64,000 nucleotides of DNA from Hydrurus foetidus. Lineage: Eukaryota. Below the pieces are notes generated by a model that had not been told where the DNA came from, did no database searches, and saw only the letters and a program-made list of their open reading frames with translations. How positions within the stretch are numbered: the first letter of the stretch is position 1; each line of letters begins with the position of its first letter. Shown here piece by piece: positions 5,981 to 55,600 of the stretch. The stretch spans positions 1-64,000 of the forward strand of contig UYFQ01000327.1 in the NCBI GenBank assembly GCA_900617105.1, written 5' to 3'. Position numbers and translations under genes: made by a program.

Positions 5981-6039
5981 GACAACCACTATGTGACAAC
6001 CACAATGTAGCAAGAACCAGATGTGTAACAACGAACTAC

Positions 6040-6246: not shown

Positions 6247-6337
6247 GTAGATCTACTTCCTTTAGTTTCTCTTCTTTAGACCCTATCCTCCTACTCTAAG
6301 CTACCATCCCCTATACTACCCTGCTGCCCTAACTCAC

Positions 6338-14071: not shown

Positions 14072-14444
14072 GTTCCCCAGGAACGACCTACACATTATCT
14101 TTTGAAGATTCCTCCTCATTTTTACAACGTTACGTTGCTTTTCAGGAGGTTTAGTCAGTAAAAATCTGACATAAATGTGTAGGGGAACACTTAGTTACAA
14201 CACATCTAGGCACTCTCGTTTCTCGCTTTCCCCATCTCTCACATGTACAAATATCTGTATTTATTGTACGCATTTATTTCTGTCTTTTATTTATTTATTT
14301 ATTTTTTATTATTACCTTTTTCTGCATTTTTCTCTCTCACGCTGGAGTCATATTTGTTTGTTACACACTGTAGATAGAAACTCACCAAGAGAGAGAGAGG
14401 GAGAGGGAGAGAGAAATGAGAAAACGAGAGATAAGTAGGGGTAG

Positions 14445-14651
14445 TGTGGCTCCCTCAGGGTCTGCTACCCCATTCAGCCGATTAGATGCTGTTTCCACCT
14501 TAGTACCTTCGTGTTCACAGCCACGACTATCAGTCACTAGCTAGTTTGTGCTGCTTTGCAGAAGTTACTAGCGTACCTTCTGTTGCATCCCTAACTAACT
14601 AGCTCCTTTTAGCCTTTAGACTTCCCTTCTCTTTTGCCTTCCAAGGTCACA
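14445..14651 (+). repeat. Gypsy 3' LTR
   Basis: Matches 6040-6246 and is preceded by the polypurine tract ...GAGAGATAAGTAGGGGTAG. Confidence 0.97.
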
Positions 14652-14861: not shown

Positions 14862-15560
14862 CAAGGGGGTATAGAAAGGAGGTTACCCCCTCTTGGTTCT
14901 ATTCCGCTCTCAGAGGTAGGTCCCTTTAGGGGGAGACATCCCCGTGCGACCTCACGGCTTTTCACCCGCGCTCTCCGTTGCATCCTAGATGCTCAGTTCG
15001 AAGAACAGAGAATGGAATAAATGCGGCGTTATCTTACAATGGGTGCGCCTGCGCGCCTGGGCTCGCCCGTCCGCCCTCCCCTGCTGTTCTTCCTTCCGAA
15101 CCAAGCTTGGGTGTTGGGGGCGGACCTTGGGTCAGAGTTTCCTTCACCAACTGGCACGCAAGTGGTCAGATAACATTGCACAACATCTTATACTATCACC
15201 ATAAAAACGTAGGATTGGTTGGCCACGGGGTAATAAAATGCGTCACACTAGATAGACTAAGGTTAATCAAAAGATTGTGAGAGAACACTCTCAGTGAAGC
15301 GCGTCGACTACGAGCGGGCACACTATATTAATAATTCGAAAAAGTGCTGAATAATTATTCGAAAACGTAGAATGACACTACAACGACTAGGGGGACTTAT
15401 TCCCGCTGCATGTCGGTCCAACGCTATCATCGTCATCGTCCCCCGTCCCGTCCCTCGGTATCTCCCCATCCGCAGCCGCCCCTTTAGGGACCGGCACCGG
15501 TCAGCGGCCTTAGCTCCTAGCCGCTCCAGAGAACCCATACTACCGTCCGGTATCCTTTAA
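14862..15560. mobile_element. Unclassified 699-bp non-coding insertion with 6-bp direct repeat TTACGA
   Basis: Absent from the sister LTR at 20570-20852. TTACGA occurs at 14856-14861 and 15561-15566. The insert starts with hairpin CAAGGGGGTA...TACCCCCTCTTG. Confidence 0.85.
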
Positions 15561-15835
15561 TTACGAGGTGTGGTACGCACGTACGCACCGAGTCCGGTTA
15601 ACGGCGCTACTCTTTGTATGCATGAAAATGAATGAGTAGTTTAGCGAGCGACACTTTAGATTGTAGGTGACCGAATAAGTGTCGTGGCTAATGAACAGGG
15701 ACATTAGTCACAAGTTTAAATAACAAGTACTGATCGAGAGCAGTCGATTTTTTACGAGTCTTGGAACGTGATACACCACCGGATAGTTCTAGAAACACCG
15801 GATTTCCAACATATTTAAACTGACAAGGAAGCATC

Positions 15836-18800
15836 GTGATGCCTCCAAAACGCGCCTCTTATGCTAAAGATGCAAAGGAATGTATGCTTCAGATCGGGAA
15901 GTACAACAATGTCGTGGCCTGGAACCTCGACGTTAGGGCCTCCGTAGGAGCTACCTACGGCAGCAGCGCCCTATTCCTGACAACGGACGCCAGGATTACG
16001 TTGTCACCTACCCCACCGGCGATGGAGATCCAGCGCCAGTCGGAATGTCAGCTGAGCTGAAAGCGGACCTTAAGAAGGACGCCTTCACTAGCAGACAGCG
16101 AGAGATGCGAAAGCAGAAGGAGGACCAGAAGAAGATATACAGTGTCCTGTGGATGAGGATGTCACCTGCCTCACAGAGCAAAGTGAGAGAGCAGGCCGAA
16201 TTTGAAGTAGCAGACGTCAGTAAGGACTGCGTCGTGCAATGGACTAACATCAATGGTGCACAAGCCCCTATGGTCCGGCTGAACAAGAGGGATTAAATGG
16301 CGCGGTACAACGTGCTCAGACAAGGTGATAGAGAACATGTTGCTGCTTTCAAAATCCGTTATGACGCGCAGGTTCAAGCGGGTGTTGGAGCCGGTCTCAC
16401 CGCCCTCGACGAAGAAACGATGGCTATGGATTTCCTCCATAAGCTCGACCAAAAGAGATTTGGCAAGCTACTGACGCACATGAGGTGGAACGCACTGTTC
16501 AACAATGCCGACGCTTATCCGGCTACCCTGGCCGCAGTAGTCACGATCGCTTCAGACTAGCCAGATGAAGGTCCAAGTTCCGGGAGGTCCGACCCCTCAG
16601 GCAACGATACCCACTCTGCCTTCGTCACCGCAGATTCTTGCTTTGTTACGGAAGCTAAGGATTCTGGAAAGAGAGGTGCAAAAGCTCCGGCGGCCGACAA
16701 AACCGCCCCAGGGAAGAAGAAGTCATTAGAGGAAGTTGAGTGCTAAGTCTGCGGCGAACTGGGACACTACGCGCGCGACTGCAAGAATAGAAAGTCTACT
16801 GCGAAGGCTCTAGTCGCGCAATCGGCGGTGGAAAAGGGCGATGACAACGACGAGTATGAGAGCGAGGAGGAGGACGAGACGGTATATGTTACAACCTTGG
16901 AGACTGTTCTGTTCGCCAAGGACGACGTGCTTCTCGACAGCCAGGCCTCTATCAACGTGTTCTGCAATCGAGCCCTCTTGAACAACGTGAGGAAATCGGA
17001 TAGAAACGTTGTGCTCAATGGCGTCCAGTCTGGTGCCGCCGGGGTGAAGATCACACAAGAAGGTGACTTCAATAACGTGGGATAGGTATAGTACAGCTCA
17101 GAAGCTACAGCAAACATCTTGTCATATGCCGTCATGATCGACGGCAGAAATCGGGTGAGGTACGACCAACGCAACGACAGATTCCTGCTAAGGCCAGTCG
17201 GGAGCAACATGGTATACTCGTTCTGTAGGAAGAACATCCCTGGTAGTGAAGGTCGATTCTACTGCTGCAATTTCAACTCAATGGTGAGCGAACACGCGAC
17301 GACTTATCCGACAGACGATTGCGTGTTGATAGAAACCGAGACTGAGAACATGTCGCGATATACAAAGCGCGAAATCGAAGGAGCGTGCAAAGCCAATAAT
17401 TTGCTCGCTAAGATGGAATTTCCCCTGGTTTCTCAAGCAATCGAGATTGCCACACGCGGCGTCAACTTTACAGTAACGGGTACAGACTTCCAGATAGCAA
17501 ACAATATATGGGGTCCAAATATCGCGTCCTTAAAGGGTAAGACGAAGAAAAATCGCGGACATCCATATTCCGAAACCAACGCTGCAGTAGGAACAAATTC
17601 TATCGGTCGACGTCATGTATGTTGAGGGTGTACCCTCGCTAATCGGCCTGGCGACACCATTTGGTCTCACTATGGCAGTGTCGTTGCTCAGTCTCGATTC
17701 TACACACGGTTCGAGGTCGACTAGTATCATCAGGGATGGAATCTTGGAATTTATATCGACTTTGTCGTCACGGAACTTCGTGACTCGACTCATTATGACT
17801 GACGGTGAGGGTGCAGTGGGATAGATCACTAGAGAGCTGAATCAAATGGGGATAGAGGTCGACATCAGTGGGGCTGGTGGCCATGTTGCTCGTATAGAGC
17901 GTAAAATCCAAACGGCAAAAGGAAGGACGAGAACAATCATGCAATCCGACTATCTCCCATACACACTAACCCGTCTTGGAGTGGCAATGCTAGTACTATC
18001 CTGCGTTTCTAGGTTGAACTATCAGTCATCCGGAACTGGTGGCAGATTCTTAAGCCCGAGAGTCGCGTTCTCAGGACGTCAAGTTGACGAGACCCTAGAC
18101 TTCAGAGCGAGCTTCGGGGAGTACGCACAATACACTGTAGCCAACACCGATAGGTCCATCGCACCACGCATGGAGGACTGCATTGTAATGCTGCCTACAG
18201 GCAACAGGACGGGATCCATGAAGATGATGTCCATCAGGACTGGTAAGCTTGTGACGAGGGATCAATTCAAATTACTCCCCATGGCATCCTCTGTTATCAC
18301 CAGGCTTAACGAGATGGCAGCTGCAGAAGGAAGGATCACCGGCACTAGATCTAGGATAGTGTATGATGCAGAGCGAGGGTTGGAGAAAGACGACGTGACG
18401 TATATCCGGCCAACAACCGAAGACGACGGACCACTCCCGTTCATCCCGGCGGAAGCCAGGGACAGTTACGGAATCAGTCCGCTTGCCGACGCTAACATAG
18501 ACAACAAAAAGAGCGACAGCTACCGGTACGAACCGTACTCAGCTGAGGATATACATGGACGCACAGTACCCTGAGTGCTACCCTCCGCAGCGTCTCATGG
18601 AGCTTAACGCGGATGACCTCGACGAGGGCCCACCAGTAGAGTTCGAAGAGCCCGTTACGGAAGTCCATAGGCATTCCGATGCAGCAATACCGGCCGCCCC
18701 ATCAAGACCAAGAGGTAACTCGGATATCAGGCTCGATACGGTGAGTTCGACACCCACCGCCAGTACCACGCCTCTTCCACTTAGGAGGAACCTGTCGAAC

Positions 18801-20432
18801 CATTACCAACCTGGGGATACGACAGTCCTAGCCAAAAAACACGTGATGAACATCACAGTCAAGGAAGCGCTAAGGAGTAGGGGTGTGGAAGCAGTGCGAG
18901 TCATACTCAAAGAACTATCACAAATGATAGACAAAAAGGTATGGACGCCTGTTCACATGTCCGTACTCTCCAATACGGAAAAACACGGTATTATTCGTTC
19001 GCAGATGTTTCTCAAGGAAAAGTACTTACCTACTGGTGCATTCCAGAAACTTAAAGCTCGACTAGTCGCTGGTGGAAACCATCAGGACAAGGACCTCTAC
19101 GACGACCTCTCATCACCTACTGTCTCCACGAGTGTGGTTATGACAGTGTTCGCCATAGCTGCTCATGAGAAGAGGAGCGCCGTTGTGGTCGACATTGGGG
19201 GTGCCTATCTGAATGCTAGCATGAACACAGGGGTGACCGTGCACATGAGACTCGATGCTAGCATGTCCAGAATGATGACAAAGATAGACCGACACTACAA
19301 CCAGTTCACAGACAACAGAGGGTGCATCGTAGTACGGCTCGACAAGGCATTGTACGGGTGCGTGGAATCAGCGGCGTTGTGGTACGAGAATCTATCTGCT
19401 ACCCTAGCTGGGCTAGGGTATAAGAAGAATGACTACGAGGCATGCGTGTACAACAGGACTGAAGGAGGGGTGCAGTGCACGGTTGCATTCCATGTAGATG
19501 ACTTGATCATCACCAGCGAGAACAGTGAGTATGATCGATGATCTGTGCAAGGGACTCAAGTGTGAGTACGGAGAAATAAACAGACGAGATGGGCCACTGC
19601 TGAATTACCTAGGAATGTCGTTCGACTTATCAGTGCCAGGTGAAGTGAGCATGGGCATGAAAGGGTACACCAACGATGTGATACTATGCGGGGGTATACC
19701 GGGTAAAGCGCGTAGCCCGGCTACTGACGGCCTATTTGACATAAGAGATGGTACGGAACTCGTGGTGGAATCGACCCGGGTATGGTTCCACAGTATTGTT
19801 GCGAAGCTATGGTTCTTGGGGAAGAGAGCAAGACCAGATTGTTTAGCAGCATTAGCGTACCTCGCTACTCGTGTCACTCGCTGCACTGCTGATGACGTCG
19901 AGAAACTTAAACGTTTGTTGAGATACATAGCTGATACCAGAGACAGAGGTGTCGTATTCAGACCAGGCAAATTTGGTTTATCGATGCAGCATACGGGGTG
20001 CATCCGGACGGTAAATCACACATAGGAAGCTGTGTGGTGATAGGTGACTTGGGTGCGGTGCACTGCAAATCTAGCAAGCAGAGTATAGTCACTAAGTCGA
20101 GCACAGAAGCCGAACTAATCGCACTATCTGACTTTGCAAACCAAGGCCTCTATATCCGTAATTTTCTTATCTCGCAGGGACACAAGATGAAGCCGGTGAT
20201 GATCTATCAGGACAACACTTCCTGCATGGCCTTTGTCGAGAGAGGACGCTCAGGAGCAGAGCGCACACGGCACATCGCTATCCGAAACTTCTGGATACGT
20301 GAGCGGGTCACCACTGGAGAAGCTGTCATAGAGCATATGGGGACGAAGGAGATGTACGCGAATGTACTGACGAAGCCCCTCAAAGAAGCACAATTCGTAT
20401 ATGAGAGAAAGTGTCTTACGGGACAGGAGTAA
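15836..20432 (+). pseudogene. Copia-1 gag-pol, broken by stops and frameshifts
   Basis: Knuckle C*VCGELGHYARDC near 16741. Protease LLDSQAS. Integrase IMTDGE and HVARIERKI. RT KARLVAGG, LDKALYG, HVDDL. RNase H SSTEAEL and YQDN. Confidence 0.93.
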
Positions 20433-20569
20433 TCATAACGTGCATTACTGCAGATGTAATGAAATCTATTGCGTGCTGTTTGATGTATTGTGAAATCTAC
20501 TAATGTATTGTTACAAGCTGTTTGAATATAAATAATTCATGATGTTTAATTGCGGTAGCCCTAGGGGTG

Positions 20570-20852
20570 TGTTGGATATTGCGTTATAGGACTACCGTTA
20601 GTTACGAGGTGTGGTACGCACGTACGCACCGAGTCCGGTTAACGGCGCTACACTTTGTATGCATGAAAATGAATGAGTAGTTTAGCGAGCGACACTTTAG
20701 ATTGTAGGTGACCGAATAAGTGTCGTGGCTAATGAACAGGGACATTAGTCACAAGTTTAAATAACAAGTACTGATCGAGAGCAGTCGATTTTTTACGAGT
20801 CTTGGAACGTGATACACCACCGGATAGTTCTAGAAACACCGGATTTCCAACA
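20570..20852 (+). repeat. Copia-1 3' LTR (283 bp)
   Basis: Direct repeat of 14832-14861 plus 15567-15811, with about 2 substitutions seen. Confidence 0.95.
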
Positions 20853-28614: not shown

Positions 28615-29565
28615 AGTATGGCGTGCCAAAGGTGTTTTTATTATTTTCACCGTTTTCCCGAGGATCCCGTACTTTTCTTTCTCCGCTCCTACGGTACCCT
28701 CGCATCTCCAAACTCCAAACCATCATACACCTCTCAACTCATAGCACTGTAGAAAACGCATATAGAAGATTCAAAAGCTGTCCATGAAAGAGCACTTTTC
28801 TCAGGATAAGAATGCTTTTAATTACAATTTGTTATGCTCTACTGCGATATCTTCAAGACATTCTATACAGTGTGTAATGTAATGACCACAATATTCTATT
28901 CTATCAGCAGAGCAATAATCCGCGAGATATTTGCAAAAGTGATGGTGATATTGAGGTGATGTTTTTGAACGCTTGTAACTATAACAGCAAATGCCACATA
29001 ATACATGAGACGCTAAGAATTTGCAAGCATCATGACAGATATACTTTGCTACTTCGCTCAGAATTTCGTGTGAATTGAGCGGCTCAGTTGCAAAATAGAG
29101 AGGAACTATTTTTTTAGACAAAAATGGCATCAAAAATTTTCGGTGGAATGGAACATTTGGCGTCAGCCTTTGACGTATTAAAGCTCAGTAGCTAGATTTT
29201 GGTGCATTTTCAAGCAAGAATCAAGCGTTAGAAGAGTCTTACCTGCTGTCGCAGATACTCTGTATGGTTTGGAGATGGTGAAATCTCCTGTTTTCGTGAG
29301 TCTTCGGGATGCTTGATTTCTCTCGTGATGAAAATTTCCAAAGGTAGGAGTAGCGGCTATAGCTGCTATGATAGGCATCTTGAGGAACTGCTGATTCACT
29401 TTTCCAACTGGAGTGAAGCTGCATTTTCTACAGTGCTATGAGTTGAGAGGTGTATGATGGTTTGGAGTTTGGAGATGCGAGGGTACCGTAGGAGCGGAGA
29501 AAGAAAAGTACGGGATCCTCGGGAAAACGGTGAAAATAATAAAAACACCTTTGGCACGCCATACT
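28615..29565. mobile_element. Non-coding element with inverted repeats of about 145 bp (foldback or MULE-like, unclassified)
   Basis: 28615-28760 is the near-perfect reverse complement of 29420-29565 (AGTATGGCGTGCCAAAGG... / ...CCTTTGGCACGCCATACT). Confidence 0.85.
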
Positions 29566-29666
29566 GAGCGGAGAGAGAGGGGGCGGATCTCGCACTCGAA
29601 CGATTGACGTCCCCCTACGTCTTAGCCTACTACAACGCCGCTGTCCGCTTCAGCTGAAGACTGAAC

Positions 29667-32600
29667 TGTTGATGCCGACGGATCAACTGGGAAGAATCGA
29701 AGGTCCTGATTCAGTTTGGTTGAATTAGATTATGTCAAAGGAGTGAAGATGATCATGTGATTCAGTAGAAAGCACCTGCAGGTTGGTGAGTTGTCACTTG
29801 TCCGTAATCATGCAATGTTTCAGTGGTTGTGTGATTGCATTCAACATCATGTGATTGTTATCTACTGTGTCCTGAATGCAGTGATTCTCGAGTTTGTCTC
29901 GGTAGAGAAAAGCGGATTGTGTTTCCACGTTCCGCAGGTGGCGCGCACACGTCTTGTTATATCGACAGTATCAACACACTCTCTCAATTTGGCTTTTGTT
30001 TACCTTACTTGACTAGACAGCGGCACGTTGCGCAGAGGATTTCTGGAAAGATTTGGCTGGCGATTGCGGTGTGTGGACAAGAAGTGGCATGAGTACCTGG
30101 TGTGTCTTAGCCGGTGGGGGTTTGGTGAAGAAATCAGCTAGATTATGTTCGCCTTTACGCCACTGTATATGAAAATGTCCTTGGTTTACGCGGTCTCTGA
30201 TCTAATGGTATCGCATATCGATTAATTTTGTCCTTTTTGCTTTGACTGAGTTTATCGCCATACCCACTGCGCACTGGTTGTCGCAGAGTATTAACGTGGG
30301 TGATTGCGTGTAGCCCATGTTTGAGAGAACCTGCCGCAGATATTCCCCGTCTTGGGCCAGAAGGAAAAGCGCCGCATACTCTGCTTCTGCGGCACTAGCA
30401 ACCACTGATGGTATAATGGTGCTGACTGCATGGATAGCACCATTGATGTGATGAGGCGAGCCAGCATTTCCTAGATAGCAGATGCCCCCAGCGACAGAGC
30501 GTGCTTTTGGCCGAGATAGGTAGGAGGCGTCTGCTTGAATGAATAAGGTCATGTCGCACGCGTGGTACACTAATTCGTTGTTAGGGTATCGCGCGCAGTA
30601 GCGTAAAAGGCGGTCGGCAATCTCCTCAACTTGCTCTGTGGGGGCCGATTGCAGCGATGCGATCAGATTCACTGTGGGCAGGAGTGTGACATCGACGCCT
30701 CGGGCGTAGAATAGCCGAAATCGTCTACAACTAGCGCGAAGGTTGTTCCGTTTGATGAGTGTCTGAATAAGCATGGAGTGTCGGTCTGATGGTACTGATG
30801 TTTGCGTAAGTGCTCAATGAGTTTTTGTTGTGCTAAGTACCCTGCCTGCGGCAGTCCGTACATCCCTTTATTAACTTCGAACAGAATGGAATTGTTGGAC
30901 ATGAATCGCTCTAATTTGTGGGCCGCCAGAGTGGCAGGGGGAATAAGTTTACGTTGGATACGAATGTATTCTGGCCGGGATAGTGGCGTATTCAAGTAAT
31001 AGTCCTTGATGTCTAGTGTCATCCAATTGCTGTCATCGCTGACAACTGATTGCAAAAGGATTTTGACGACAGGCATTGCGGCGGTGTTTGCAGAGGTCTC
31101 TCCCGGGTAATTGATCCTGTCACCGCCGATGGTGCCTCGTACTCTGTATGTTCGGTTACCTGTTGCATCTTCCTTCTCTTTAATCTGCGGATTGTAGTAG
31201 CTGGTGTCTTTTCGACGATGCATTGGTTGCTCATGAATGTGTAGGGGTTTCATTGTGTTTGATGAAAATAGTCGGTTAAACTCTTCAATCTCAGCTTGCC
31301 GCCACTGTAGTTCCTGGTCACCACGAATGGCCTTTGCGTATGTTAAGGGTGACCCGTCTGGCGCCAAGTTCAGGGATGATACAGCTGATGCTGATCCCGC
31401 GGTTGTTCTACTGCGTGTCACCGGTGGCTCAGGCTGCGTTTTTAACAGCGTAGTTTTTGAAACGGGGAAAGGTATATTTGGTGCAGTGGCCTCTGTGGGT
31501 AGCATGACGTTTTCTGTCAGGTTAACGCAATGGTCGGACTGCGCCGCACTGTTTATGGTCTGAGGTGCAACTGTAACTGACGATTTCTCGATTAACAGCG
31601 GAAGCGGCGGTGCTTGTTCTTGATTGGGGTCTGCTGGTAACACCCTCTGTTCTGCGTCCGTGTACTGTAGTTGTGACGACGGTTGTTGCAATTCAGTCGT
31701 CGGAATGACGTCGGGTAGGGTAATGGGTTCGGAAGGTGCTATGGCGATTTCAGTTGCTGTCGGAGTATCTGCAAGTTGCAGAGTCCTTGGGCAGAAAGAT
31801 TTCACAAACGCCTTCAAGTCCTTGAGCATTGTATGAGGAACATCATGCAGTTGGCGTGAGTGCGCTGTTGCAGGGTGTGATGTTGCTAATGTGGATATTG
31901 CTGCTGCCAAGTCTTTGATTGCAGCTATGGCAACGTCATGGGGTCCAATATTAGGTAGTACCACTTTGTCGAAGATCCAACCCAGTGTGTCAGTTACTCT
32001 GATGGATTGTGTGTCGATTGACCACACACTAAAGCAGCGATAATGCTGTTGCGCTGGTCCTAGGTAGAAGCCGAGCACACCATGTGGTGCCCAAGTACCG
32101 CGGACAGTTGGCTTGTCGTGGATAATGACTTTGGTGCCTGCGGGCGCTATGGGATGCGCTCGAAAATCGAACTGTCGCCCGTGTAAGCCCTCATAAGCAG
32201 AGATGTTGGGATTAGGACTGTAGGGTATAAGGTGATTCAAGCAAAGTTCTGCTTGCGGGAGCAGTTTGTCCCACAGAATCATTGGAAAGTCGGTGGATAC
32301 TGTGCATAAGGTCGCGATGAAGTGGTTCTTGAATGTTCTGATGGCGCGCTCTGCTTTCAATGATCTGTGTTGTCCTGGAGGGCAATATTGTATTGAGACA
32401 TTGTTTTTTGCTGCATATTCTCTACTGCTAAGGACGTCTCGTTGTCAAGCCTTTGAAACAGTGGCTTATGCCCAACCTTGTCCCAGAATGCCAGAGTGTT
32501 TTTGTATGCGTTGACGTAGTTTGACTGGTGACGCGATGGTATAGCTTCGCAATGGATGTATCCGTCTAGTACTGATACGAACACGTATTCGGCACCGGAT

Positions 32601-34755
32601 AGGGCCTTGACTGGAAACCGACCCGTTAAGTCTGAATGTGCTGTTGGTGAGAGAGACAGTGTCTTTGTGAAGACTGTTCTGCGGGGTGATGGCGGGTGGT
32701 TTGCTTCGTCTGAATCTTCAGGATGATCGTCCAATGATGTCGAGTCGAGGCCCTGGCGGTATTGATCTAAATGTCCCCTAGCTGTCGCTGCCGTGAGAGA
32801 GAGGTATGACCTAACCATAGTGGCAGTCAACCGTGGATAGGAAGAGAGGTACCCTTACCGCACTGCGCGAAGTAGAGTGGAAAGCGAGGGACTGCCGAGT
32901 GTTGTGTGTATAAATGTTGCGAAGGAGGCATCGGTATCGCTACGGAGGATTGCTGATGCTGCCGTGGCTGCTGTCGATTCCACAAGTGGTCTGACTGCAG
33001 TACAGTGAGACCATCTCTGGTAACATGCATTTCCTCGCTTGTAAAAGTGGCAATACATCCGTTGTTGCACAGTTCTGAAATGCTGACAAGTGATGTATCG
33101 AGAGAGGCATCAGGAAATATATGTGCCGTAAGCGGTGCTGGTAGATGGGGCAACCACAACTCTCCAACAGATGAGGAGCTCATAGTGTCACCGTTAGGAA
33201 GTGCCGAACGGATGTTGCTGTTGTGTCGTACGTTGCTTAATGTGACTGCATCCGTTTCTCGCAGTAGTATATGCGAAGATCCCGTGTCAGCACACGGTAG
33301 TTGGGTGACTAGGTGGGCCGATGAAGATAAGACTTTTGGACTAGAACAAGGTTGTGTTAAGTTACCGTCCAAAATCTTAACTTGATGGCCGATTTGTCAG
33401 AGTCCGTGTATGGATCCATTTGCAACATCGGTATGGGTTGTTGCTGCCTTCATAGCTGCAGTGTACTCTGGTAGGGCAGCCATCTATCGACACTTGGAGC
33501 TGCTGTGGGAGTTGTACCCATGTTTGAAACAGTAGGTGCGGTTGGATGCGTCAGTCGATGAGTTTGCTTTCGCTTTGTGGGGAAAGGCTGCCGAAATCCG
33601 TTTATCTATATATGCTGCGAAAGCCGCCGACTCTAGGTATCCCGTTGGCATATTTGTAACGGCAGACACCGACGCTGCGTATCCGAGGTCTACGGGGGCT
33701 GGTGTAAAATTGGGCGCCTGCTCGGTGATATGATTGACAAGTCCAGTAAACGTCTGCTGCACAATGTGTGGATGCGCAGTCAGGTATGATGTGATGGCTG
33801 TTGTGTAGGACATGTGGGAACCGATAGCCGCCCGTAAGTACCGGCACTTGTCGACCTCGGATAGTCCCTGATTGGCCGATAGGAACTGGCTGTGCCGCCA
33901 ATTCGGAAAAAGTCCTACTTCCTATTTTCGTGTTGAGATCTGTGCGGAAAGAGTCGAAGTCAGAGGCTAAGAAGGTCCCATATCGTTCCCGTAACTGGTC
34001 CAGTAGTTGTTGGCACGATATGGATACGAGGCCGAAGAATAGATCGCTTAGCTCGTTTTCATCAGCGTCGGGGAGGCTACTGATGATAGCGTTCTTCAGT
34101 ACCCGCAACGCTTCGGATATAGCGGAATTTCTCCTGAAGGTTATTTCGTACTGTTTTAAGTTTGCTGCTGGTGCGCCCAGTTCGGGTGGCGGCGTGAGAA
34201 CGACAATCGGCCGATTCATGATTATAATTTCTCCTTCGTTGGCTGGATTGTTCATAGCGATGCCAGGAAGCATTGCCCATTGCGCGTCAGAAACGCAAAA
34301 ACCTAGCAAGCCGTTGACTCCCAGGTGTTCCTGACAGCGACTTCCGAATGCTGTATTTGTTGCTCGAAGGAAAGCTTGCATGTTTTGCCTGCTGTTCGCC
34401 TTGATGTCCGGGAGAATCACTTCAGTCATTGTAATTTAATTCAACTGTTGATGCCGACGGATCAACTGGGAAGAATCGAAGGTCCTGATTCAGTTTGGTT
34501 GAATTAGATTATGTCAAAGGAGTGAAGATGATCATGTGATTCAGTAGAAAGCACCTGCAGGTTGGTGAGTTGTCACTTGTCCGTAATCATGCAATGTTTC
34601 AGTGGTTGTGTGATTGCATTCAACATCATGTGATTGTTATCTACTGTGTCCTGAATGCAGTGATTCTCGAGTTTGTCTCGGTAGAGAAAAGCGGATTGTG
34701 TTTCCACGTTCCGCAGGTGGCGCGCACACGTCTTGTTATATCGACAGTATCAACA
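29667..34755 (-). mobile_element. Copia-2: Ty1/Copia element with identical LTRs but defective coding region
   Basis: 310-bp LTRs at 29667-29976 and 34446-34755, identical by eye. TSD TGAAC at 29662-29666 and 34756-34760. PPT (minus strand) GAGAGAGTG. Confidence 0.96.
30202..34429 (-). pseudogene. Copia-2 gag-pol, fragmented
   Basis: Knuckle YCFKHGYNSHSSSKC. Protease CADTGSS. Integrase SDLTGRFP, RLDNE, AERAIRTFKNHF. RT LDIKDYYL, KGMYGLPQAG, VVDDF followed by an internal deletion. RNase H ADASYL, SAAEAEY, CDN. Confidence 0.93.
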
Positions 34756-34760
34756 TGAAC

Positions 34761-34988
34761 ACCCAAGACCCCAAGACTCCGTCATTCCTACTGCCCTCAC
34801 ATCCGACTCTACTACCCCATCAGTGCGCGTCATGACGAAGACTGACCACTCAAGACACCAAGACTCCATTATTCCTGCTACCCCTCTCCATCATTTTCTT
34901 CTACCCCATCAAGTGCGACTCAAAAAAAACCCTGACAGAGACATAAAGAGCGAAGAACGTGGACCCAGACCCAAGACCCAAGACCCAA
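34761..34988 (+). repeat. Short degenerate repeats (CCCAAGAC units and a duplicated CCAAGACTCC...ATTCCT motif)
   Basis: ACCCAAGACCCCAAGACTCC at 34761, ACCAAGACTCC at 34857 and GACCCAAGACCCAAGACCCAA near 34968. Confidence 0.55.
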
Positions 34989-35297
34989 TTCCGGAATGAG
35001 ATATTATCAGCAGTCAGAAAATTATTTTAAGTGCATTATTTTGCATGTTACATAAAGTCTTTTTAGCATTGTTTAACTCTATGCTCATTCGGATCAGTCA
35101 GACCTTATGATACTAAAATTACCCTGTGTGTAATAAATTATCTAACGTCACCATTAAAGTCAACCCCACTATTACCCTACACTACAAAATCATGTTATGA
35201 TACACCATTTGTGAAACTCCAAGTAAACGGAGCATTTTTGAATCCTAATGCGTTTTCATTCGCGTACACCAACCCGACAACTCACGCCATAGGGGTG

Positions 35298-37680: not shown

Positions 37681-38492
37681 TGTTGGTAACCGTGGCACAA
37701 TATGTTGTACACATATAACAATCCATACCGTTTTGGCTTCGGCCAATTACAGCCATCAGTATTGCGTGACTGACCGCAGTCATAGCTTACCGCATTCACC
37801 ACCATAATTTAATCACAACAATCGTCGAATAGTCCAATTCGTTTGACACGTTTGATATGCAGTACGCGATCAACAGTTGTGATTAGATCTCTTCGCTTGA
37901 CAATGGAGAGCACGACGCCAATTAATTTACATAGTCATATACGACAAATTTTCTTAGTATGGCGAAGATCGATAATCGAGGCGTACGGACAGTCCTGTAA
38001 TATCTACAACCAACACAGACTGCTGGGATATTGTCAGACTAACCACTAACGTAGTTACGTCTGTTGTATAGTAGTAGATATAGTAGTATAGATACACGTT
38101 AGGTAGTACTGTATACATATATGTATATGCGTAACTGTACGTACACCATAGAACGTACACTGTACATACCAGATATGGCCGTTGGCGATACATCCCATAT
38201 TCGAAAGTATCCTTTCAGTGCCAACAACTGCTATGACCTTTCTTGCAACGCCACACATGATTTCACCTCTACCTTGCTCGCCACCTCGTTTGCCAGGTAG
38301 CCAATCATATGTTAGTTGCATATGTAGGTTGCCAACTGCAGATCTTCTGTATCTTGTAAACCTAGGCAGATCTTAATCGATATAGCTTGCACGCCGACAC
38401 AGCGTTCTAGCCGAATCTTGGAGTTCTACTGCAGTAGCCTCCACACCAGTTGGACTATACGTCATCAGGTGATATCCTTAGCCAGATCCACA

Positions 38493-38501
38493 TGGTAGCG
38501 A
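38493..38501 (+). promoter_or_regulatory. Primer-binding site of Copia-3 (TGGTAGCGA, initiator-Met-like)
   Basis: TGG, complementary to tRNA CCA, follows the LTR-terminal CA directly. The tRNA identity is inferred. Confidence 0.7.
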
Positions 38502-41500
38502 TTGATTGTTGAGAAATCACAAATCAAGTCTGATCATTTTTAGCAACCAAAATTGACGTCATCAGACAAGCAAAGCAATGCTAGCCACTCAGAGCAGAAG
38601 TTCTAGTGTGCCAAAATCAGCGGCAAAACAACCCGCCGCTGCTCGAACGGCTACTCGGTCAAGAGGCCAAACGAGATTTATCTCTTCAGCTTCAGCACCA
38701 TCGAAACCGGCTTTCCTCCCAGATAATGCGGATATTATTCCTCGCGGATATTATTCCACTGGCGCCCATCGTTCAACAAACTGAGTTAGGCATTCCACTT
38801 GAGGATATTCTAAAAGCGCCTGCTCCGCCGGATCTTATTCAGAAAGATCTACTGACAATTCCTGGAGCGATTCTGGATAATGGGAAGAGGAGCGATTCAG
38901 CGGATCTAACCACTCACCATTCCCCGGAGCCTGCCACATCTCTGGCCACTGGGCAATCTTCTAGTATGTATTCTAACGAAGATATGAGAGAAATCATTCG
39001 GTCAATGATGACCGAATATACGATCTGATCAGAAAGTGTGATGAGTAAGACGCCGGTCGAAACGGCGCAACATAATACGGGGAATCAAATCATCCTAGGC
39101 GTAAGAGATGATGTCAGCGACCTCCAATTAATAATCGAAATCACGACAATAGCCTTATCGATGGGTCACCGTCAAGGAGTATACGATCACTACGACGCAT
39201 CAATCATCGATGGCAGTCAAGATCAACTTGTCAAACGACGGGGCTACCAATAGGAAGAAGCTCAAAGAGCTCGAGCTTCTCCTGAATGAGTGCGAGCTCT
39301 TTACTCTCGCTGAGGAAAAGAGGATCCCTGTTCCATCCAATGAATATAACCCAAGTGGTTATACTCATGAATCTGCCAAGTTCGACGGCAACAAAATAAT
39401 CATCACAAAGAAAGGTATACAGGATCGCTTCCATACCCTCCTGCTTGTTCCCTTTGAGCTTCCTGGTCAGTAGGTATAGCTTGTCTGACTCAGTCATACA
39501 CGTGAGGTTAACGTTGTTCACGAGCGTGACAGCTTCTAGGAACGCCGCGATGTTTTCTTTGATCGACTTGCTTGAAGGTGGCTTGAGATCGTCGAGTAGC
39601 CCCCTTGATAGTCCGCTCTCATTACTCCTCTCGCCTTGAGCAAAGCGTTTGATTGCTTTGTACCACTCGATCCCGTTCTTGACGTTGATGTGTTGCGTGA
39701 TGAGATAGTGTAGGTCCTTGTTTGTGACAAGGTTCATCAGAGCGAATAGTCTTTCTGTGGCTTGCGCTCGGATGGTTTACCTCCTGGAGCCTTGGATGTC
39801 TTGCGTGAGTACTTACACCGCTCACCGAATGTGCAGGAGCCTTTGAGGAAATTGCGACAGACATTTCCCTCAGTGATTGCATTCATCTTCAATGCTTTGA
39901 TGGTTGGAGGGTCAGCTCGAATGAGCTGATTGACTAGCTCGCGATATCCTTTACTGTTACGACAAGTCTAAGACAAAGTATCAACCACCGCAGCACAAGA
40001 AGGTATCATTCGAGCACCGATTCAAGACCGGGTCCCCACGTGGAAAACCTACGGACAAGAATCCTGAAGGACACTCCATCAAGCAGCTCGTTGTCCCCAA
40101 GTCGCCTACAAGCCAGGGAAGCAAAGACGGCTGGCAAGATCCAACATACTTTGACATTGCAAAGTCTCAAAACAAGACGGAGCACTTAAACGTATTCAAG
40201 ACAAACGCAATCACGCCATACGTACCACCAAAACGTACAAGCCCAAGACGCGTCGTCATATCCGAGGAGACATCAAGGTGGATCCAAAGTCAAGAAGCCA
40301 TGCTCATGTCCATCGATCAACGAATCAAGACTTTCAGAGATGTAAACGACTTTGTACCCACCATCAAAGATCTCCTCGTATACGTCCACAAGTATACCAA
40401 GTCGGATCTTGGCAGATCCACCAGTGAGGTCGAAGCCACCATATTCACCGGGTTCTGTTGGCAGTCAAGTTGCAACCCACTACACAACATGTGTAAAGAA
40501 AACCTCCAAGTGAAAGATGCGGACCCTCATGTTATGGAACTGCTGTATGAAAACAGCGAGTACTTCAACGCCCGTATGGATTTCCCCACCGCCCAAGAAT
40601 TGACCTATAGAGAGTTTAATCTGTTTAGACCCACATGATCAGACTATCACCCACGGGGAGAACCGGGCCACTACATGTCACGAGCAAATGAAATAGACGA
40701 GTTCTATGTTATCGCAAATAGGATAAACATCATGGGAGTGTCATCGGATACAAGAAATGTTCTAATGCTAGGTCTAGTGTATGACTTTATGTCATATGTA
40801 GCAGAGCATCTCAACGTAGACATTATCAACCGCAAGACAACCATGGCTGGACGAGTCATCATGCGCCACAAGATCAAGAGGCTCAGCAAAGAACCCGAGT
40901 ATGTTCAGCTACATATGCTCACACGGATATTTCATGCCATTGTGGATTCACTCCGCCCACCGGTCATAGAACGCGAAGCACCTCCCCCGCAGGAAGTACG
41001 TACGTTCTCAGTCATGAGCACCTCGGAAGGCAATCAAGGCGACCGCTTCGGCATCGATACCGAAGACGACATGGACTATGAGGAAGCTGTAGGCACATTT
41101 GATCAGCCTGACTATTGGGAGGATACAAGTGACGCAACCTTCAGTCCCAACGCAGCCCTCCGAAACAAGGATATGCAGCGCGAAGACACCACAACAAAGA
41201 GCGTGACCTAAGGAACCTGTACAACTTCCCTGACACGCCGGAGATATTCACGCCTCAGAGAAGGAAGCCGAGGAAGTCAGAGGTCAAAGCGGTACAAACA
41301 CGTCAGGAATATGACGCAGACACTTTCCCTATCCAACCTCCACTAACCACTTGCACCTACACCACCTCGTCGGTACACACCAAGCAAATCATCTGAGCCA
41401 CGCACGCCAGCGACTCCACAGTCAACCCCACAGCGCGTTGCCATAGGCATGTATGGAAATGGTGCACCACGATGGGGTTATGTTGCCAAGCGAACTCAGG

Positions 41501-41924
41501 GCAAGGAGAAAGCAGCTGACCCAGCCCAACCAACATCAAGCAGCATGACTAGCTCATCAAGAAGCGTCATAACGACCCCGCGGTCATCAGCTAGTGTTGG
41601 AAGCGGATCAGCGGCATCACGAAAGAGCACACCTGCTACATCGACTCCTCAGCGCCTCCAAAGCGGATCCTCTGCATCCCACGGTATACACAGCGGATCA
41701 GCGGCACCATCCAGTGTGCACAGCGCATCAGCGGCACCATCGCCGGCTCCCAGCGCCTTAGAGGCATCACCAGGACCCCCCACACCAGCTCTTCAACATC
41801 AGCCACGTTCAGGCAAACCATTTGTAGTCGACCTCACGGCCCCAATGCCACCACGGAGGGCGAAGGCCCCAAGGCTAAACTGAACCTCCTGCACGTTGTA
41901 GGGCCGGCACATCGAGTCCTGGGG

Positions 41925-44900
41925 ATGGCCTCAAAAGAAAATAAAGTTATCATCGACAGTGGAGCTTCCACGTCAGGAACAGGTCTCCAAAATAAGTTTA
42001 AGAACCTACGGCCTGCATCATGCACGGTAAATGCAGCTTTCGGGGAGACCATCACACCATCAGAGATGAGTGACCTGCCACAACCGACCATCGTCATCAA
42101 AGGAATGAAGGACACGACCCTACTGTCACTGTCACAGGCATGTGACGAGATCATGTGCGTTATCTTCACGTCACGCGACTACAGATTCTACGGCCTCAAA
42201 GAGATGCAACCTCACCTGGCACAGATCAGCGAGACCTGCGAGATGAAGTTGTGGGGAGAAGTAGAGGACGGACTCTACATCCAGAAGTCAATCTGACTTT
42301 GTGACGAGGAATGCTTGTTGGTCACAAGCGCTAAAGACACCTCGCTATACGACCACGTCCACCGTGTCCTAGCACATCCTGGTAAAGAAGGGATGGAATG
42401 GCACCAGACACACTCCACTGGAACAGCATACACCCGCAACGATGCGAAGGCACACCGTCCCGTGTATCAAGCATGCGTCCAGGGCACAATGCGACAAGCA
42501 TCCACGGACCACTTAAGAGTCCATAGAGCACCAGCACCCATACCGGGGAGCCAGTTTGGTCTGGATGCATACACCCACGCAGAAAGAGGCGCAGGCCGGT
42601 TCAAATACTGCGACCTCTTCACGGATCTCACCACACGGCGTGTGTATCCGGTGTTCACCCGTGACCGGGGAGCCCAAGAGCTATGCGACCAAGTCAGCCT
42701 GCTCTTCGAGTCTCATCCAGAATGGAGGAACGCATCTACTACATCAGACACAATCGATCGTTTCATCAGGGTCGATGGAGAAAAGTCATATAGATCCAGT
42801 GAGTTCACTAAGTGTCTCGGAGGCTTTGGATACCGCACTAAGCCCACACCACCTCGTCACAAGCATGCCAATGGAGTAGCGGAGCGCACAGTAGGAGTCA
42901 TTGCAGCCAAGTGCAACACGATTATGCTAGCCCCCACACCACCGGTTCCACCCAAGTTCTGGGACATTGCCATGAGCTATGTGTGTGCCACTATGTCGTT
43001 TAATTACAATAGTTTGATAGGTACTTCCCCATACAACATACTAATTAAAAGCATGCTGTCGTCAAACATCTCCATGCTTTCTGGTCCAAGTGCTGGGTCC
43101 ACATACCAACCAAGGACGCAGGCGGTAAAGTCGGTCACCCCCGAGCATACCAAGCCAGGTTCATTGGGTATGACTTGACGACCACACTCAAGCCTACCTA
43201 CAAAGTCATCGAGATATTAGAGAAGGGAAAATATGGCATAGTGAGGATCAGCAAAGATGTCATTTTCGACTAGCCTGAAGAGATAGTGCAACAAGTGGAA
43301 GCCACAACAGCACTAGAGCCACCGCAGCAACATGAGGCAGCTCAAACGCCTGTCCCAGCACCAAAAGCGGCACGCAATCAGACACCTGCAAGTGCACAAG
43401 TCACCATGCATGCACCAAGTGAGGCGACACAACCAAACCAGGTCGACAGCATGCGACGACGAAGTGATGCGAATGCAGTTACAACTCCAGCTAATTCCCA
43501 CCCAGTGGCGCATAGCGGTGCATCCAAGAGGGCCTCACCACCATGCATACCTGATGGTGCACCAATACACCCTGCTAACACTGTCGAATCGATTGGTGCA
43601 AACACACCGATAGTGTCATGGGAAACAGAGGATGCCGTATATTGGTACGCAATCCAGGCCACACAACTGATGACCGTAGTTGAGACGTCTCGCTATGATC
43701 AGATAAAGACACTCCCAGATACCGGCTTTCCCAAATCGTTCTGGAGAGCGATAAAGGACCCACCATGGGCCAAAGCCATCGACACTGAGCTGACGAAGTT
43801 TGAAGTCAACTCTTGCTTCAACCTTGTCCCTTTTACTGGACAGCACCTAGTTCCAATGATGTGGCTGTTCAAGAACGATGGGACGAAGAAGGCTCGACTG
43901 GTCGACAGAGGGGACAAGATGATTCCCAACGTTGACTTCACCCCGAAGCTGTGTATTGTGGAAACGTAGCAGCTTGCTCAATCAAACTAGCCATGGTCAT
44001 AGCGGCAACATACAAGCTCGTCTTGACAGGCGGTGACACTGTAGGTGCATACCTCATTACAAGAGCAAACAAGGACTTCCCAGTGTTCATCACCACACCC
44101 CAAGGTTATTACGTACCACCCGGTTACTGCATCCAAGCAGTAGGACACCAAAATGGATTCCCTCCAGCCGTACAGAACTTCTCCATCGAGTTCGACAAAT
44201 GTTTTAGGGAGTGTGGGTATAAGAACATACCATGGGGCCTCAAACTGTTCTTCAAGTGGACGCACTCGGGCAAACCGATGATTACCATCGCACATAGTGA
44301 TGACTTCAGATGGTTTGGTCCAATCGACCACATCCACGAATGGGATGCAGTTCTCGAAGCATTCAACAAGCATGGATATCAAGTCACTGATGCAACTGAC
44401 AAAGAGTTCGTCGGCATCCGTATAGAAGTAGACGAACACTCCAACTACTACATGGATCAATGCCGTATGATCGACCTCATCATCAAGGAGGCGAACATCA
44501 CAGGTGCAAAGGACGAGCACCTCCCATACCCCACCGACGCACAGCAGCCACCACTGTCCAAGATGGACTGCCCTACCATTGACGCCGATGGGGCCAGACG
44601 TGTCGTCGGACAACTCATGTACGGTATGGTGCACACAATGGTGGGTATTGTGTACGCACTCAACATACTTTCGAGATACGGTAACAACCCTGGTCCCCGA
44701 CACATACTTAACCTCAAGCACCTGTTGAGATATGTCAAGTATGTGAAGAGGGGCCGTCTCATATTCCGGACCCATGACGGACCAACCGACATAGACACCA
44801 TGACCAAGGTACTACAGCTGAAGTTCCAGTGCGATGCAGATCTAGGTGGTAACCAAGATAACCACCACTCCCAGACCTGCTACCTCGGATACCTCGCTGG

Positions 44901-45270
44901 AAGCCTCATCTGCTGGTGTTCCACCGATCAAGGGTCAGTATCCACGTCCACAACGGAATCAGAGATCAAGGCTGTCAACCATGCACTCAAGTCGGAAGTC
45001 ATACCAACTCGCGGTATATTAGAGATGATAGGGTGGAAACAGGATCCAACCATCATCGAAGAGGACAACCAGGCTTGCGTGTACTACTCAAAGACCTCTT
45101 CGATGATGGTTGGATCCTGTTTCCACCCTATCATCTCTAATATACCGCGAGTTGGTATGACTTCCGACTTGAGTGCATGGTTGACAGCCTTGATCAGACG
45201 GCACGTGCACTGTGATCAAAGTGGCCTCTGAAGACAATAACTCGGACATTGGTACCAAGAGGGTAATACT
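41925..45270 (+). pseudogene. Copia-3 pol (PR, IN, RT, RNase H), fragmented
   Basis: IIDSGAS, IRVDGE, ANGVAER, KKARLV, HSDDF, CDADLGG, STTESEIKA, EEDNQA. Confidence 0.92.
44964..45195. repeat. Perfect 101-bp inverted duplication with a 30-bp spacer in Copia-3 RNase H
   Basis: 45095-45195 is the reverse complement of 44964-45064. Confidence 0.93.
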
Positions 45271-45956
45271 CCCCATCTTCACTAAACTAACGTCCCAAAT
45301 TGTTGATAGGACACTCAGAAATAATTTATAAATGTTTTTTGTAAACTTTTGCATATTATTTAATATTTTACAATGCCTTTTGTAATTTTTTAGTATTCTA
45401 CTCACACAGTAGTCTATAATTTTTTGCAATTTGTTATTTGTATTATTAATAGCTCATTAGCAAACATGCACTCATATACATGCATACATCTTCACTACGG
45501 GGAGTGTCAGACTAACCACTAACGTAGTTACGTCTGTTGTATAGTAGCAGATATAGTAGTATAGATACACGTTAGGTAGTACTGTATACATATATGCATA
45601 TGCGTAACCGTACGTACACCATAGAACGTACACTGTACATACCAGATATGGCCGTTGGCGATACATCCCATATTCGAAAGTATCCTTTCAGTGCCAACAA
45701 CTGCTATGACCTTTCTTGCAACACCACACATGATTTCACCTCTACCTTGCTCGCCACCTCGTTTGCCAGGTAGCCAATCATATGTTAGTTGCATATGTAG
45801 GTTGCCAACTGCAGATCTTCTGTATCTTGTAAACCTAAGCAGATCTTAATCGATATAGCTTGCAGTTTCGCCGACACAGCGTTCTACTGCAGTAGCCTCC
45901 ACACCAGTTGGACTATACGTCATCAGGTGATATCCTTTAGCCAGATCAACAGATAT

Positions 45957-52260: not shown

Positions 52261-52605
52261 TCCCGACCAGGATCCCAGATCCCGGATCTCCGATCTCCGA
52301 TCGATCATCCCAGAAATTTGGGACAAATGAAATGTTCAGTACGAATACGAATCGTACGAGAACAGTGTACGCTCTGGTGGGGACGCTGGGACCCCGTGAG
52401 GAGTGATCGTAAATCGTTAAGTATGGGATGAAGTTCAGACTGTTGATCAGCGCCCTTACTTCTACCTTATCGCTTTCAAAATGGCTTTCGTGGTGATGAA
52501 TTCGCATAGTGATGGAATGACCACAACTGATATTGTGTAGACAAAATTTGGTCTCATGATGTTAGGTTTTCCGTCTCGCCTCAGTGGATAATCCTGAAAT
52601 AAGCC

Positions 52606-55600
52606 ATGAATGGTTTTTTAGGGCTTAATTGCTCGGCTGGAGGTCACATATTATGTCGACATGATAACCAATTGCTAGCCCTTAACTACGAAAACCTTTG
52701 TGACGCGGAATATTTGGATAGACTGTTCACATCTCAATCTGGTGAGCAAGTTGATAAACAAGGGCATTCTACAGCATTGAAGGACAGTGAAAGTTGGATT
52801 CTCAGTGCTGATACTGCCGAAGATGTTATAGTCTTTGGAAGTGATCCGTTTTTAGGGAAACGTCTCATGCTGAAAAGATATCTGGCTGGCATTGCTACAT
52901 CCGTAAGTAGTCATGACATTTTATCCACACTGGTACAGCGTCAAATTATTGTTTTTGAGAGGATTGGGAGACTGATTGAGGCAAGCTGTCTGCAGCAGGA
53001 AGCACTACTGAAAAAATCAATCGAAGGAACTTTCAGAAATTCAGAATCGACTAAACTTGAGATGAAACCACATGTTAGAAATCATGTTGCCTCCGAGGCG
53101 CTATGTTGTGCCCTCAGAGCACTAGCAAAGCACAGCCGCAATCAGCTCCAGAGATCAGCTGTAGATCCTATAATAACACTGCTGCTTAGAATGTATCAGG
53201 AACGGGGATCTCATTATCTTACTGGTGGCAGCCGTGATGAAGCCCCTAGAGTGGACGATAGACAACTACAGCACCTGAGAGAAGTTCTTTGTAACGGAGT
53301 AGAGCACGGCATCGAGCTTTTTGCAGCATGTACACAGACAGCAGATGTCAAGCAGAACGAGGAGCATCTGAAGCTTTGTCTTTCGTGTGCTTATGGGCTT
53401 CTTGCTGTGGGGATATATGCGAAGGGAGTGGGTGACGTCATGATGGCGCTACTTCAAATAGTTTCGATTTCTCTACTTCTAAATGAATTCCAGTCACTGC
53501 TGCTGAATGACAGAGAGCTGGAGTCGTTTACATTGTCGAGTATTGAGAGGTCGCTTGACGCAGTTGAGACTCCGAAGTTATCAACTGACCAACCGCTACT
53601 CAATGAATATGAAGATCAGCAGAAATTAAATCTTAAGTTGAAAGTCAAGCTGAAGGTGAAGGACAGCGGCACCAATTTATTTCCAATCATAAACAAGTTT
53701 TCTGCGAATGCTTCAACAACATCCTCCATAACTACTTGCGAGACCAAGCTATCTGTTACCTCGAACGATTTCCTCGACCAGCAAAAGTTAAAAAAAATAA
53801 AAGCTGGAAAGTGGGACGCTGTAAATTGCAAATCTAGCGCAATCAAGGTTTTGGATAAAGCAAAGGAATCTCATCTGACCGATCGAGATACTGCAAAATT
53901 GAGAATTCAGCTTGTACGAAGTCGTCTTTATGGTGACGAAGATTTTCCATCGAAAACGATTTCTAACCCCACAAACAGCACGCGAAAAAATGCTCCAAAA
54001 AAAATGAGCAGTATTCCGGGTAGTGGAAATAATAATGAAGATCGGAATTCTCCGGATTTTGATGATGATTCCTATGGGACGATCCAAAGTCCCTCGCAGT
54101 CACACGGATTTCCTTTATCCCTGGCCCCGCAACTGATAACAGGGAGGAAAAGCCACAGACAAGAAGAAAGCAATCAGGCAGTCGTTCTTTCTAGTGCAAC
54201 GGAGACTCATCAGAATATGGAAGTTGATGATCGGAATATCGACACATTTGATGCCCTTAGGATATCCTTTAAGAATCTTTCTCGTATTCCTAAGAGTGTT
54301 CTGAGAATCGTTCTCGATGGATGTGCAGAGCAACAAGCAGAACAGAAAAGAAATACAAAATCCTATGGGGAGGAGATTCCATCCAGTAGGTGCACGATCC
54401 CTTCTAAATCGTACGTGTGGAGTTGCGGACAGAATTCGTATGGAGAATTGGGACACTGTGACGGATCTTTACGAAAAACATTTTCTAAGATTAATTTTTT
54501 AGAGGGAAAAGGTGTTGTAAGTGTTGGTGCAGGAAATGAGCACTCTATATTTGTGTGCAATGACGGCAAAGTGTTTGTCACTGGTTACAATGACAATGGT
54601 CAGTGCGGCAATGGCAAAACAGAACAAGTTAAGTCACCCCAACAAGTTACAGCCCTTGCAGGAGAAGATATCGCAAAGGTCTTTGTATTCAATGGGTGTG
54701 AACACACACTAGTCACCACTAGGGACGGGAAGCTGTACTCATTCGGATACAATTACAGAGGACAGGTTAGTGTGGTCTACTGTACTCGAGAGCATCTATG
54801 AGTGTTGACTCTACTCTGTCTTCCAAGCATTTTGTGATTTCTACTGCACTCAGTCGGTCTTAAATTTCACCTACGCATTAGTTGGTGTGTATCTTATCTA
54901 GCAGTTGGTTCGTCCGTTTTTATCTGCAGTATGTTGTAGAAGAATACTGCTAATCTTACCTACTGTCCTCTTCATAAAACACATACAATCCACTTCCCTT
55001 CCCTTCAGCTCGGTCACGGCAGCACGACCATCGAGTCAGTGCCCAGACTGGTCAAGAGTCTTCTCTCCAAGAGGGTTGTCACAGCTGCGTGTAGCTACCA
55101 CCACAGCGTACTCGTCTGCTCTGATGGATCCCTTTTTTCGTGTGGGAGAAACGACTGCGGACAGTTAGGTCACGGAGATACCATTGACAAGAAGACACCG
55201 TACCAAGTGTTCTCACTAGGTGCACCAGCAGACGGCGGAATCTCCCAGATATCGTGCGGGCAGTTTCACACAGTCATGCTTACTACTGGTGGGGTGGCGT
55301 TTGCATGCGGTAAAAACGACTACGGCCAGACATGTTTGGAAAGCCCTGAGAATTGCAAAACATTCACCCGCACTCTGGGTCAGTCTCCTAACGACTTGAT
55401 AAAACAAGTGTGCTGCGGCTACTACCACACGCTGTTGCTGTCGCAAAGTGGAGCGGTTACCGGATTCGGCCGCAATGACTACGGCCAATTAGGTACCCAC
55501 TGTCTAACTCCTGTCTCTCTGCCTATCTCTCTGCCTATGTCTGTCTCTCTGCCTGTATATCTGCCTGTCTCCCTGCCTGTATGTCTGTCTCTCTGCCTGT

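Follow-up and report, generated by a model that had tools for sequence, protein, structure and literature searches.

[quoted passage not shown] Tf1 and Tf2 of Schizosaccharomyces pombe, Tj1 of S. japonicus, and the Tf1/sushi group have in common a PBS that lies beside the 5' LTR, complements the element's own LTR, and matches no tRNA (PMC7175516, PMC4600332, PMC5341516). Self-priming has also been predicted for the TAR copia elements of plants (Houba, Osr-1), based upon 10 bp or more of complementarity between LTR and PBS, starting 0-5 nt past the LTR, and the sections of PMC6317226 covered here report neither covariation nor initiator spacing for these elements. Fungal GalEa copia elements carry a Conserved Hairpin Site at the PBS position, with no tRNA PBS and no complementary LTR sequence in the account given by the relevant sections of PMC5445492. 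In the CoDi copia elements of diatoms, the pol ORF is preceded by an ORF1 and the ends are TG/CA, which some families lack; the main text of PMC2806351 makes no mention of tRNAs, priming, or primer-binding sites. Within the portions of this literature covered, self-priming is experimentally established for the gypsy element Tf1 alone and is predicted for the Tf1 relatives and the plant TAR copia. In the openly available papers searched, we found no report of self-priming in diatom or chrysophyte copia.

The element described here is a minus-strand Ty1/copia retrotransposon, present as a defective copy in a 64,000-nucleotide stretch of a Hydrurus foetidus contig (hereafter, the window). It has the hallmarks of its superfamily, namely two TG...CA LTRs, a polypurine tract (PPT), and a 5-bp target site duplication (TSD), the coordinates of which are collected in Table 1; a GAGGGTG-type tract ahead of the TG is also found in many relatives. 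The original prediction had placed the LTR ends using the two identical LTRs and the TSD, and this placement held up, because contigs from runs X1 and X2 join both flanks without the element and thereby fix the LTR end. Since the flank belongs to a high-copy repeat, the empty sites may derive from other copies of it, yet the ends remain fixed. The LTR repeat extends 3 nt beyond the LTR end by chance. The repeat in which the element sits (34756-34950 and 29560-29666) is of very high copy number, with a summed contig depth of up to ~100,000 vs. 100-400 inside the element. Two RNA runs (X22 and X23, from one sample, ~6 in 100 of which was read) each yielded 4 reads on the high-copy flank and 0 on the element interior.

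The window pol matches Pfam RVT_2 with an E value of 4e-06, which is under the curated cut-off, and the copia domain order of PR-IN-RT-RH was obtained from the order of motifs in a relative (P0169, 82-92% identical) that is collinear on the window. Thus, with RVT_2 and a copia order, the element is not a member of the Tf1/sushi group, whose elements are Ty3/gypsy chromoviruses with RVT_1, an RT-RH-IN order, and a chromodomain. Its nearest named relatives carry labels of the chrysophyte Dinobryon divergens (56-59% RT identity), and its RT motifs RVRGTIGGD and DIKDYYLNT resemble those of CoDiI. By description, the element is similar to CoDiI/CoDiII as an aquatic stramenopile copia with TG/CA ends and an ORF1 before pol (PMC2806351), and it is similar to TAR, again by description rather than by RT phylogeny, as a copia with predicted self-priming, except that TAR elements have plant hosts. 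That the LTRs are identical while the interior is broken points to a recent insertion that was mobilised by an intact partner; the window copy cannot encode its own enzymes and would therefore need one. Assembly errors could also contribute to the breaks in gag and pol.

Table 1. Features of the copia element in the window (positions are those of the 64,000-nucleotide stretch).
Feature	Position	Strand	Details
TSD, right copy (GTTCA)	29662..29666	minus	5-bp direct repeat
3' LTR (TG...CA)	29667..29976	minus	310 bp; identical with 5' LTR
pol (PR-IN-RT-RH)	29974..33372	minus	four frame pieces; ~100 RT residues missing; stop in RH; tblastn with P0169 and ORF ends
PPT (GAGAGAGTG)	29977..29985	minus	precedes 3' LTR
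gag	33400..34429	minus	frameshift near 33890; tblastn with P0182, 90-92% identity, two frames
Candidate PBS	34432..34445	minus	first base after LTR onward; complements 34511-34498 with one mismatch at 34436
5' LTR (TG...CA)	34446..34755	minus	310 bp; identical with 3' LTR; empty-site contigs of runs X1/X2
Loop between arms	34446..34497	minus	52 nt; variable in close relatives; fold unconserved among families
Predicted self-primer (5' arm of helix), start of R	34498..34511	minus	pairing, fold, covariation
Initiator-like motif (CATAA)	34509..34513	minus	predicted start on the A at 34512 or on the T at 34511 (first paired base)
TSD, left copy (GTTCA)	34756..34760	minus	5-bp direct repeat

The original prediction was that the 14-mer directly following the LTR on the transcribed strand complements a second 14-mer inside the LTR. 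Both 14-mers were indeed found on the minus strand at the positions listed for the two arms in Table 1, and the proposed pairing was reproduced as 9 bp, one A.C mismatch (34436/34507), and 4 bp, with an offset of 0 from the LTR end. Folding of the leader, which had been suggested as a check, yielded the helix as the minimum-energy structure of 34512-34427 (z -2.99), and 1 of 200 shuffles was as good. Pair probabilities of the 9-bp part were 0.93-1.0 with starts from 34511 to 34520, and the duplex energy of the helix was -8.6 kcal/mol. The gag ATG lies 16 nt past the 5' LTR end as predicted, and the helix stops 2 nt short of it. As a single locus the helix is modest, since 26 of 150 shuffles had a perfect stem of at least 9 bp somewhere in the region; AT-rich sequence could supply such a stem through chance complementarity. 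When a stem of at least 9 bp was required together with the LTR-end dinucleotide and an upstream CA motif, the count fell to 1 of 150 shuffles. The 9 perfect base pairs of the window copy are one short of the 10-bp rule applied to TAR (PMC6317226). The loop between the arms had also been described as able to fold; two hairpins are predicted within it (z -0.9). The GAATC/GATTC pairing is part of the fold of 34512-34427, while the AACTG/CAGTT pairing is absent from that fold and was rejected as a component of it.

Close relatives of the window copy were informative about the mismatch. Position 34436 reads T>C (plus strand) in every covering contig of the other runs (4 of 4, from four studies), which turns the mismatch into a G-C pair and implies 14 unbroken pairs in these relatives. 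Fourteen unbroken pairs are likely to be the family norm, with the window copy carrying a derived change. The remaining differences listed within 34432-34511 fall in the loop (34454-34493), except for a variant at 34503 in the primer arm, which was seen in 1-2 contigs per run, with no partner change among the rows listed. In run X3, two loose ends (at 34459 and 34500) can be read by eye as another PBS together with a 14-nt arm to match, although the two may lie on separate contigs.

We then turned to more distant relatives, which were identified by pol alignment as the best 80 of 509 confirmed loci plus 14 more; all family counts below refer to this set. Thirty-three of the 94 loci were dropped (30 lacked a gag ORF beside pol and 3 had <110 nt upstream), and the remaining 61 loci together with the window were grouped into 50 families, after L053 had been repositioned manually at its 5' copy. 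For each family, the longest perfect stem with a loop of 25-130 nt was chosen irrespective of its position, and neither the CA/TA nor the CAT[AT]A anchor played any part in the choice. This longest stem began directly after a CA/TA in 43 of the 50 families vs. 8.4 ± 1.9 (maximum 12) in 20 shuffle sets, with the other 7 failing this automatic CA/TA test. It reached at least 9 bp in 44 of the 50 families vs. 5.6 in shuffles, and its mean length was 10.8 bp vs. 7.2 bp when shuffled. LTR ends were inferred from single-LTR contigs for most relatives; wherever a second LTR copy mapped the end, the stem started there, as in the window (9 bp), L008 (12 bp), L053/L057 (12 bp), and L045 (8 bp, mapped against L031 with 3 nt of slack). 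The trait extends over RT identities of 31-63% in a quick tree of the best 80 of 509 loci plus 14, in which L087 and L088 were left out for having too little RT and the named rows were Dinobryon-labelled only. Among the 47 families of the covariation set described below, loops spanned 26-95 nt within the search range of 25-130 nt, leaders from the LTR to the ATG spanned 13-180 nt, and the LTRs ended in CA or TA. An LTR end of TA rather than CA was observed in many relatives (L045, L047, L046, L035, L067, L051, L030, L081, L014, and others), and in L002, L014, L026, and L084 the LTR begins with TA rather than TG after the PPT. The 14 contigs L081-L094 of this clade are found in bacterial MAGs of GTDB, probably through binning contamination. 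Scans of metagenome and viral contigs with the gag pattern gave no match, nor did RT/pol scans of viral contigs.

A second feature of fixed position lies at the other arm. The motif CAT[AT]A was present 13-17 nt ahead of the end of the 5' arm in 32 of the 50 families from the best 80 of 509 loci plus 14, vs. 0.6 (maximum 2) in shuffles, and this strict form was absent from the other 18. A CA located 14-18 nt ahead of the primer end was found in 45 of 47 families, with a consensus of gcTCA[TC][AT]A. This motif resembles the published initiators of diatoms (CAY+1A and TCAH+1W; PMC4686930) and oomycetes (YCAYTYY; PMC3599244). From the motif, transcription of the window element is predicted to start at 34511-34512, which is within the interval of 34506-34512 given by the original prediction. 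Alternatively, CATAA could be a 3'-processing signal, such that the transcript would end at 29719 within the arm copy of the 3' LTR and this RNA 3' end would anneal to the PBS as the primer. The identical 3' LTR does have the arm (29732-29719), and a fixed spacing of 14-18 nt could suit a cleavage signal. However, the consensus agrees with published stramenopile initiators, and given the established mechanism a poly(A) tail would block such priming, while the first strand transfer would have to proceed without a free R. Priming from the RNA 3' end is therefore extremely unlikely in our estimation, and we regard the motif as a putative initiator.

Covariation between the arms was examined in 47 families with stems anchored after CA/TA, leaving out the junctions L026, L062, L065, and L086. 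Among these families, drawn from the best 80 of 509 loci plus 14, there were 46 different PBS 8-mers, and pairing of at least 8 bp with the family's own LTR was present in 45 of the 47 (mean 10.8), although such anchored counts are biased toward pairing, since pairing was the basis on which stems were picked, unlike the position tests, which are free of this bias. When the arms were swapped between families, only 0.4% of 2162 cross pairs reached at least 8 bp (mean 3.5). All four pair types were present at stem positions 3-10. Of the four junctions left out, three were found by hand to have the same layout (8 bp in two of them and a single internal mismatch in the third), and L065 had no valid junction. 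For 17 hand-picked pairs of near relatives, which are subject to the same anchoring bias, 41 of 48 changed positions were Watson-Crick in both members and 7 broke a pair. The clade-wide position, spacing, and covariation of the helix lie far outside the shuffles and swaps, which refutes chance complementarity at the level of the clade, and we now give it next to no credence even for the window copy. From these results, we are nearly certain that the pairing is real and selected.

In another reading, a tRNA or a fragment of one would act as primer here or elsewhere, with the helix being a structural leader hairpin involved in packaging, dimer formation, or the control of gag translation. The short distance between the helix and the gag ATG in the window would allow such a hairpin to gate translation, and fungal GalEa elements offer a precedent, as they conserve at their PBS position a hairpin whose role is unknown (PMC5445492). 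The window clade is similar to GalEa as a copia without a tRNA PBS in which the PBS position takes part in conserved base pairing, but the GalEa partner is located downstream of the PBS position, whereas the partner in the clade is inside the LTR behind an initiator-like motif (PMC5445492, for the sections covered). We searched for tRNA priming in several ways. There was no TGG within the 60 nt past the window 5' LTR, and 0 of 47 families from the best 80 of 509 loci plus 14 had a PBS starting with TGG. A TGG 1-2 nt past the LTR end was found in 3 of 49 families and could be read in favor of a tRNA, yet these same three families pair over 9-12 bp with their own LTR. Priming by half-tRNAs was assessed with a signature comprised of Y32, U33, R37, and the closing pairs, with the anticodon arm cut at position 39/40, in 8 registers; the positions follow from the general structure of tRNA. 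Depending on the register, this signature fit 0-2 of the 49 families, the window element not being among them, and a full or half tRNA primer was rejected accordingly. One tRNA also cannot match 46 different 8-mers. The 3' arm always sits at the first base past the LTR, a position fixed by priming, whereas the distance to the ATG varies from 13 to 180 nt. Consequently, we consider a leader hairpin combined with tRNA priming to be very unlikely. ARAGORN identified 0 tRNA genes in the 64-kb window, and Rfam searches of 29500-35000 returned 0 matches up to an E value of 1, so there is no ribozyme in the LTR.

The reading we prefer, and hold to be highly probable, is a Tf1-like fold-back mechanism in which the element primes from the 5' end of its own RNA in place of a tRNA. 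This was implicit in the original prediction and is now supported by the covariation of ~50 families, the initiator-like motif, and the absence of a tRNA signature; Tf1 priming is experimental, whereas that of the window clade is predicted. The PBS begins at the first base past the LTR and pairs with 34511-34498, and across the clade the pairing is kept while the letters change. Judging from the initiator-like motif, transcription from 34512 or 34511 would make the paired site the first 14-15 nt of the RNA, and by the predicted fold this 5' end would fold back onto the PBS across the 52-nt loop. By analogy with Tf1, the RNA would be cut between 34498 and 34497, with the element's RNase H as the probable enzyme; this would release a free 3'-OH, from which reverse transcriptase would copy 52 nt (34446-34497) as strong-stop DNA for transfer to the 3' LTR. 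Such a transfer would require that the poly(A) site, i.e., the end of R, lie within 29718-29667. In other LTR elements, the PBS is re-copied from the attached tRNA during plus-strand synthesis. Here, it would be re-copied from the attached self-primer instead, which would leave its letters free to drift. Unlike the 11-nt primer of Tf1, the predicted primer measures 14-18 nt from the initiator A, with ~9-14 nt of it paired.

The foldability attributed to the loop in the window did not prove to be a conserved feature, as the loop varies among close relatives, and across the 47 families (from the best 80 of 509 loci plus 14) the loop fold energies had a mean z of -0.6 with just 9 below -1.5. A conserved loop fold was thus rejected, with loops being no better than shuffles on average, whereas a U5-IR-like structure is reported as necessary for Tf1. 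The freedom of loop length (26-95 nt) and the unconserved loop structure would equally suit priming in trans, in which the same 14-15-nt sequence would be supplied as a separate LTR-start RNA (abortive or processed) or by the other genome copy in the particle through its 5' end, so that neither a fold-back within the same molecule nor an RNase H cut of it would be needed. Trans priming also predicts an identical covariation and initiator spacing. Nevertheless, folding predicts the cis helix as the lowest-energy structure for the window element and for the families whose folds were listed, the arm is never >95 nt from the PBS even though the search range extended from 25 to 130 nt, and the Tf1 precedent is one of fold-back and RNase H cleavage (PMC7175516). 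Trans priming is for these reasons unlikely, and fold-back of the RNA upon itself remains our favored account of the helix.

The window holds several other mobile elements. A second copia (15554-20852, plus strand; LTR 15554-15811) is of a distant RT type, with 23% best identity to the clade. It has a self-complementary PBS at 15812-15821 that pairs with an LTR site at 15713-15722 over 10 perfect bp, with an offset of 0 and an 89-nt loop; a TCACA motif is located just upstream of the LTR site, the ATG lies 27 nt past the LTR, and the 5' LTR is without its start. No relatives of this second copia (Copia-1) were found in viral contigs. A third copia (38032-45951, plus strand) carries a PBS of the TGG type without a self-complement (longest run, 5 bp), and tRNA priming thereby has an internal control within this genome. 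This third copia lies inside a 12-kb repeat pair (36184-37097/48419-49352), and its RNase H region contains a 101-bp inverted repeat that is perfect and has a spacer of 30 nt (44964-45195), an inverted duplication of coding sequence that is either a fold-back lesion or an assembly artefact. A chromodomain gypsy element (6040-14651, plus strand) has a 12-nt palindrome at 6246-6257 that consists of the last A of the LTR and the next 11 nt, which recalls the palindrome of fungal GalEa (PMC5445492, for the sections covered); neither a TGG nor an LTR complement was found at its junction. Adjoining the 3' flank of the minus-strand element is a MITE-like sequence (28615-29565) with 146-bp terminal inverted repeats (99%) flanking 659 nt. 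Helitron-like ORFs (Helitron_like_N, DUF6570, and OTU protease) are found at 3331-6049 on the minus strand and are interrupted near the gypsy insertion, while large ORFs with RCC1-repeat and LamG domains at 52603-63818 on the plus strand, including a 12/12/8-nt repeat array at 55491-55902, form a HERC-like host gene.

Taken together, these observations permit a broader reading, which we offer tentatively and regard as possible but somewhat doubtful in its entirety. A large copia clade of aquatic protists may prime with its own initiator-defined 5' end of 14-18 nt, having come to do so independently of Tf1 and TAR; this primer would drift freely, as the PBS is re-copied in each cycle, and would be cut without a conserved loop structure by a rule unlike that of Tf1. 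As a second, distant copia lineage in the window has the same layout, copia elements of these hosts may even prime without tRNA as a rule. The clade-wide covariation, the fixed initiator spacing, and the exact predicted start and cut sites make copia self-priming directly testable. In practical terms, annotation rules that demand a tRNA PBS would miss or mis-bound such elements, and silencing by tRNA fragments presumably could not act upon them. Hairpin priming has been proposed to predate tRNA priming in LTR elements (PMC3601003), and this clade bears on whether it did.
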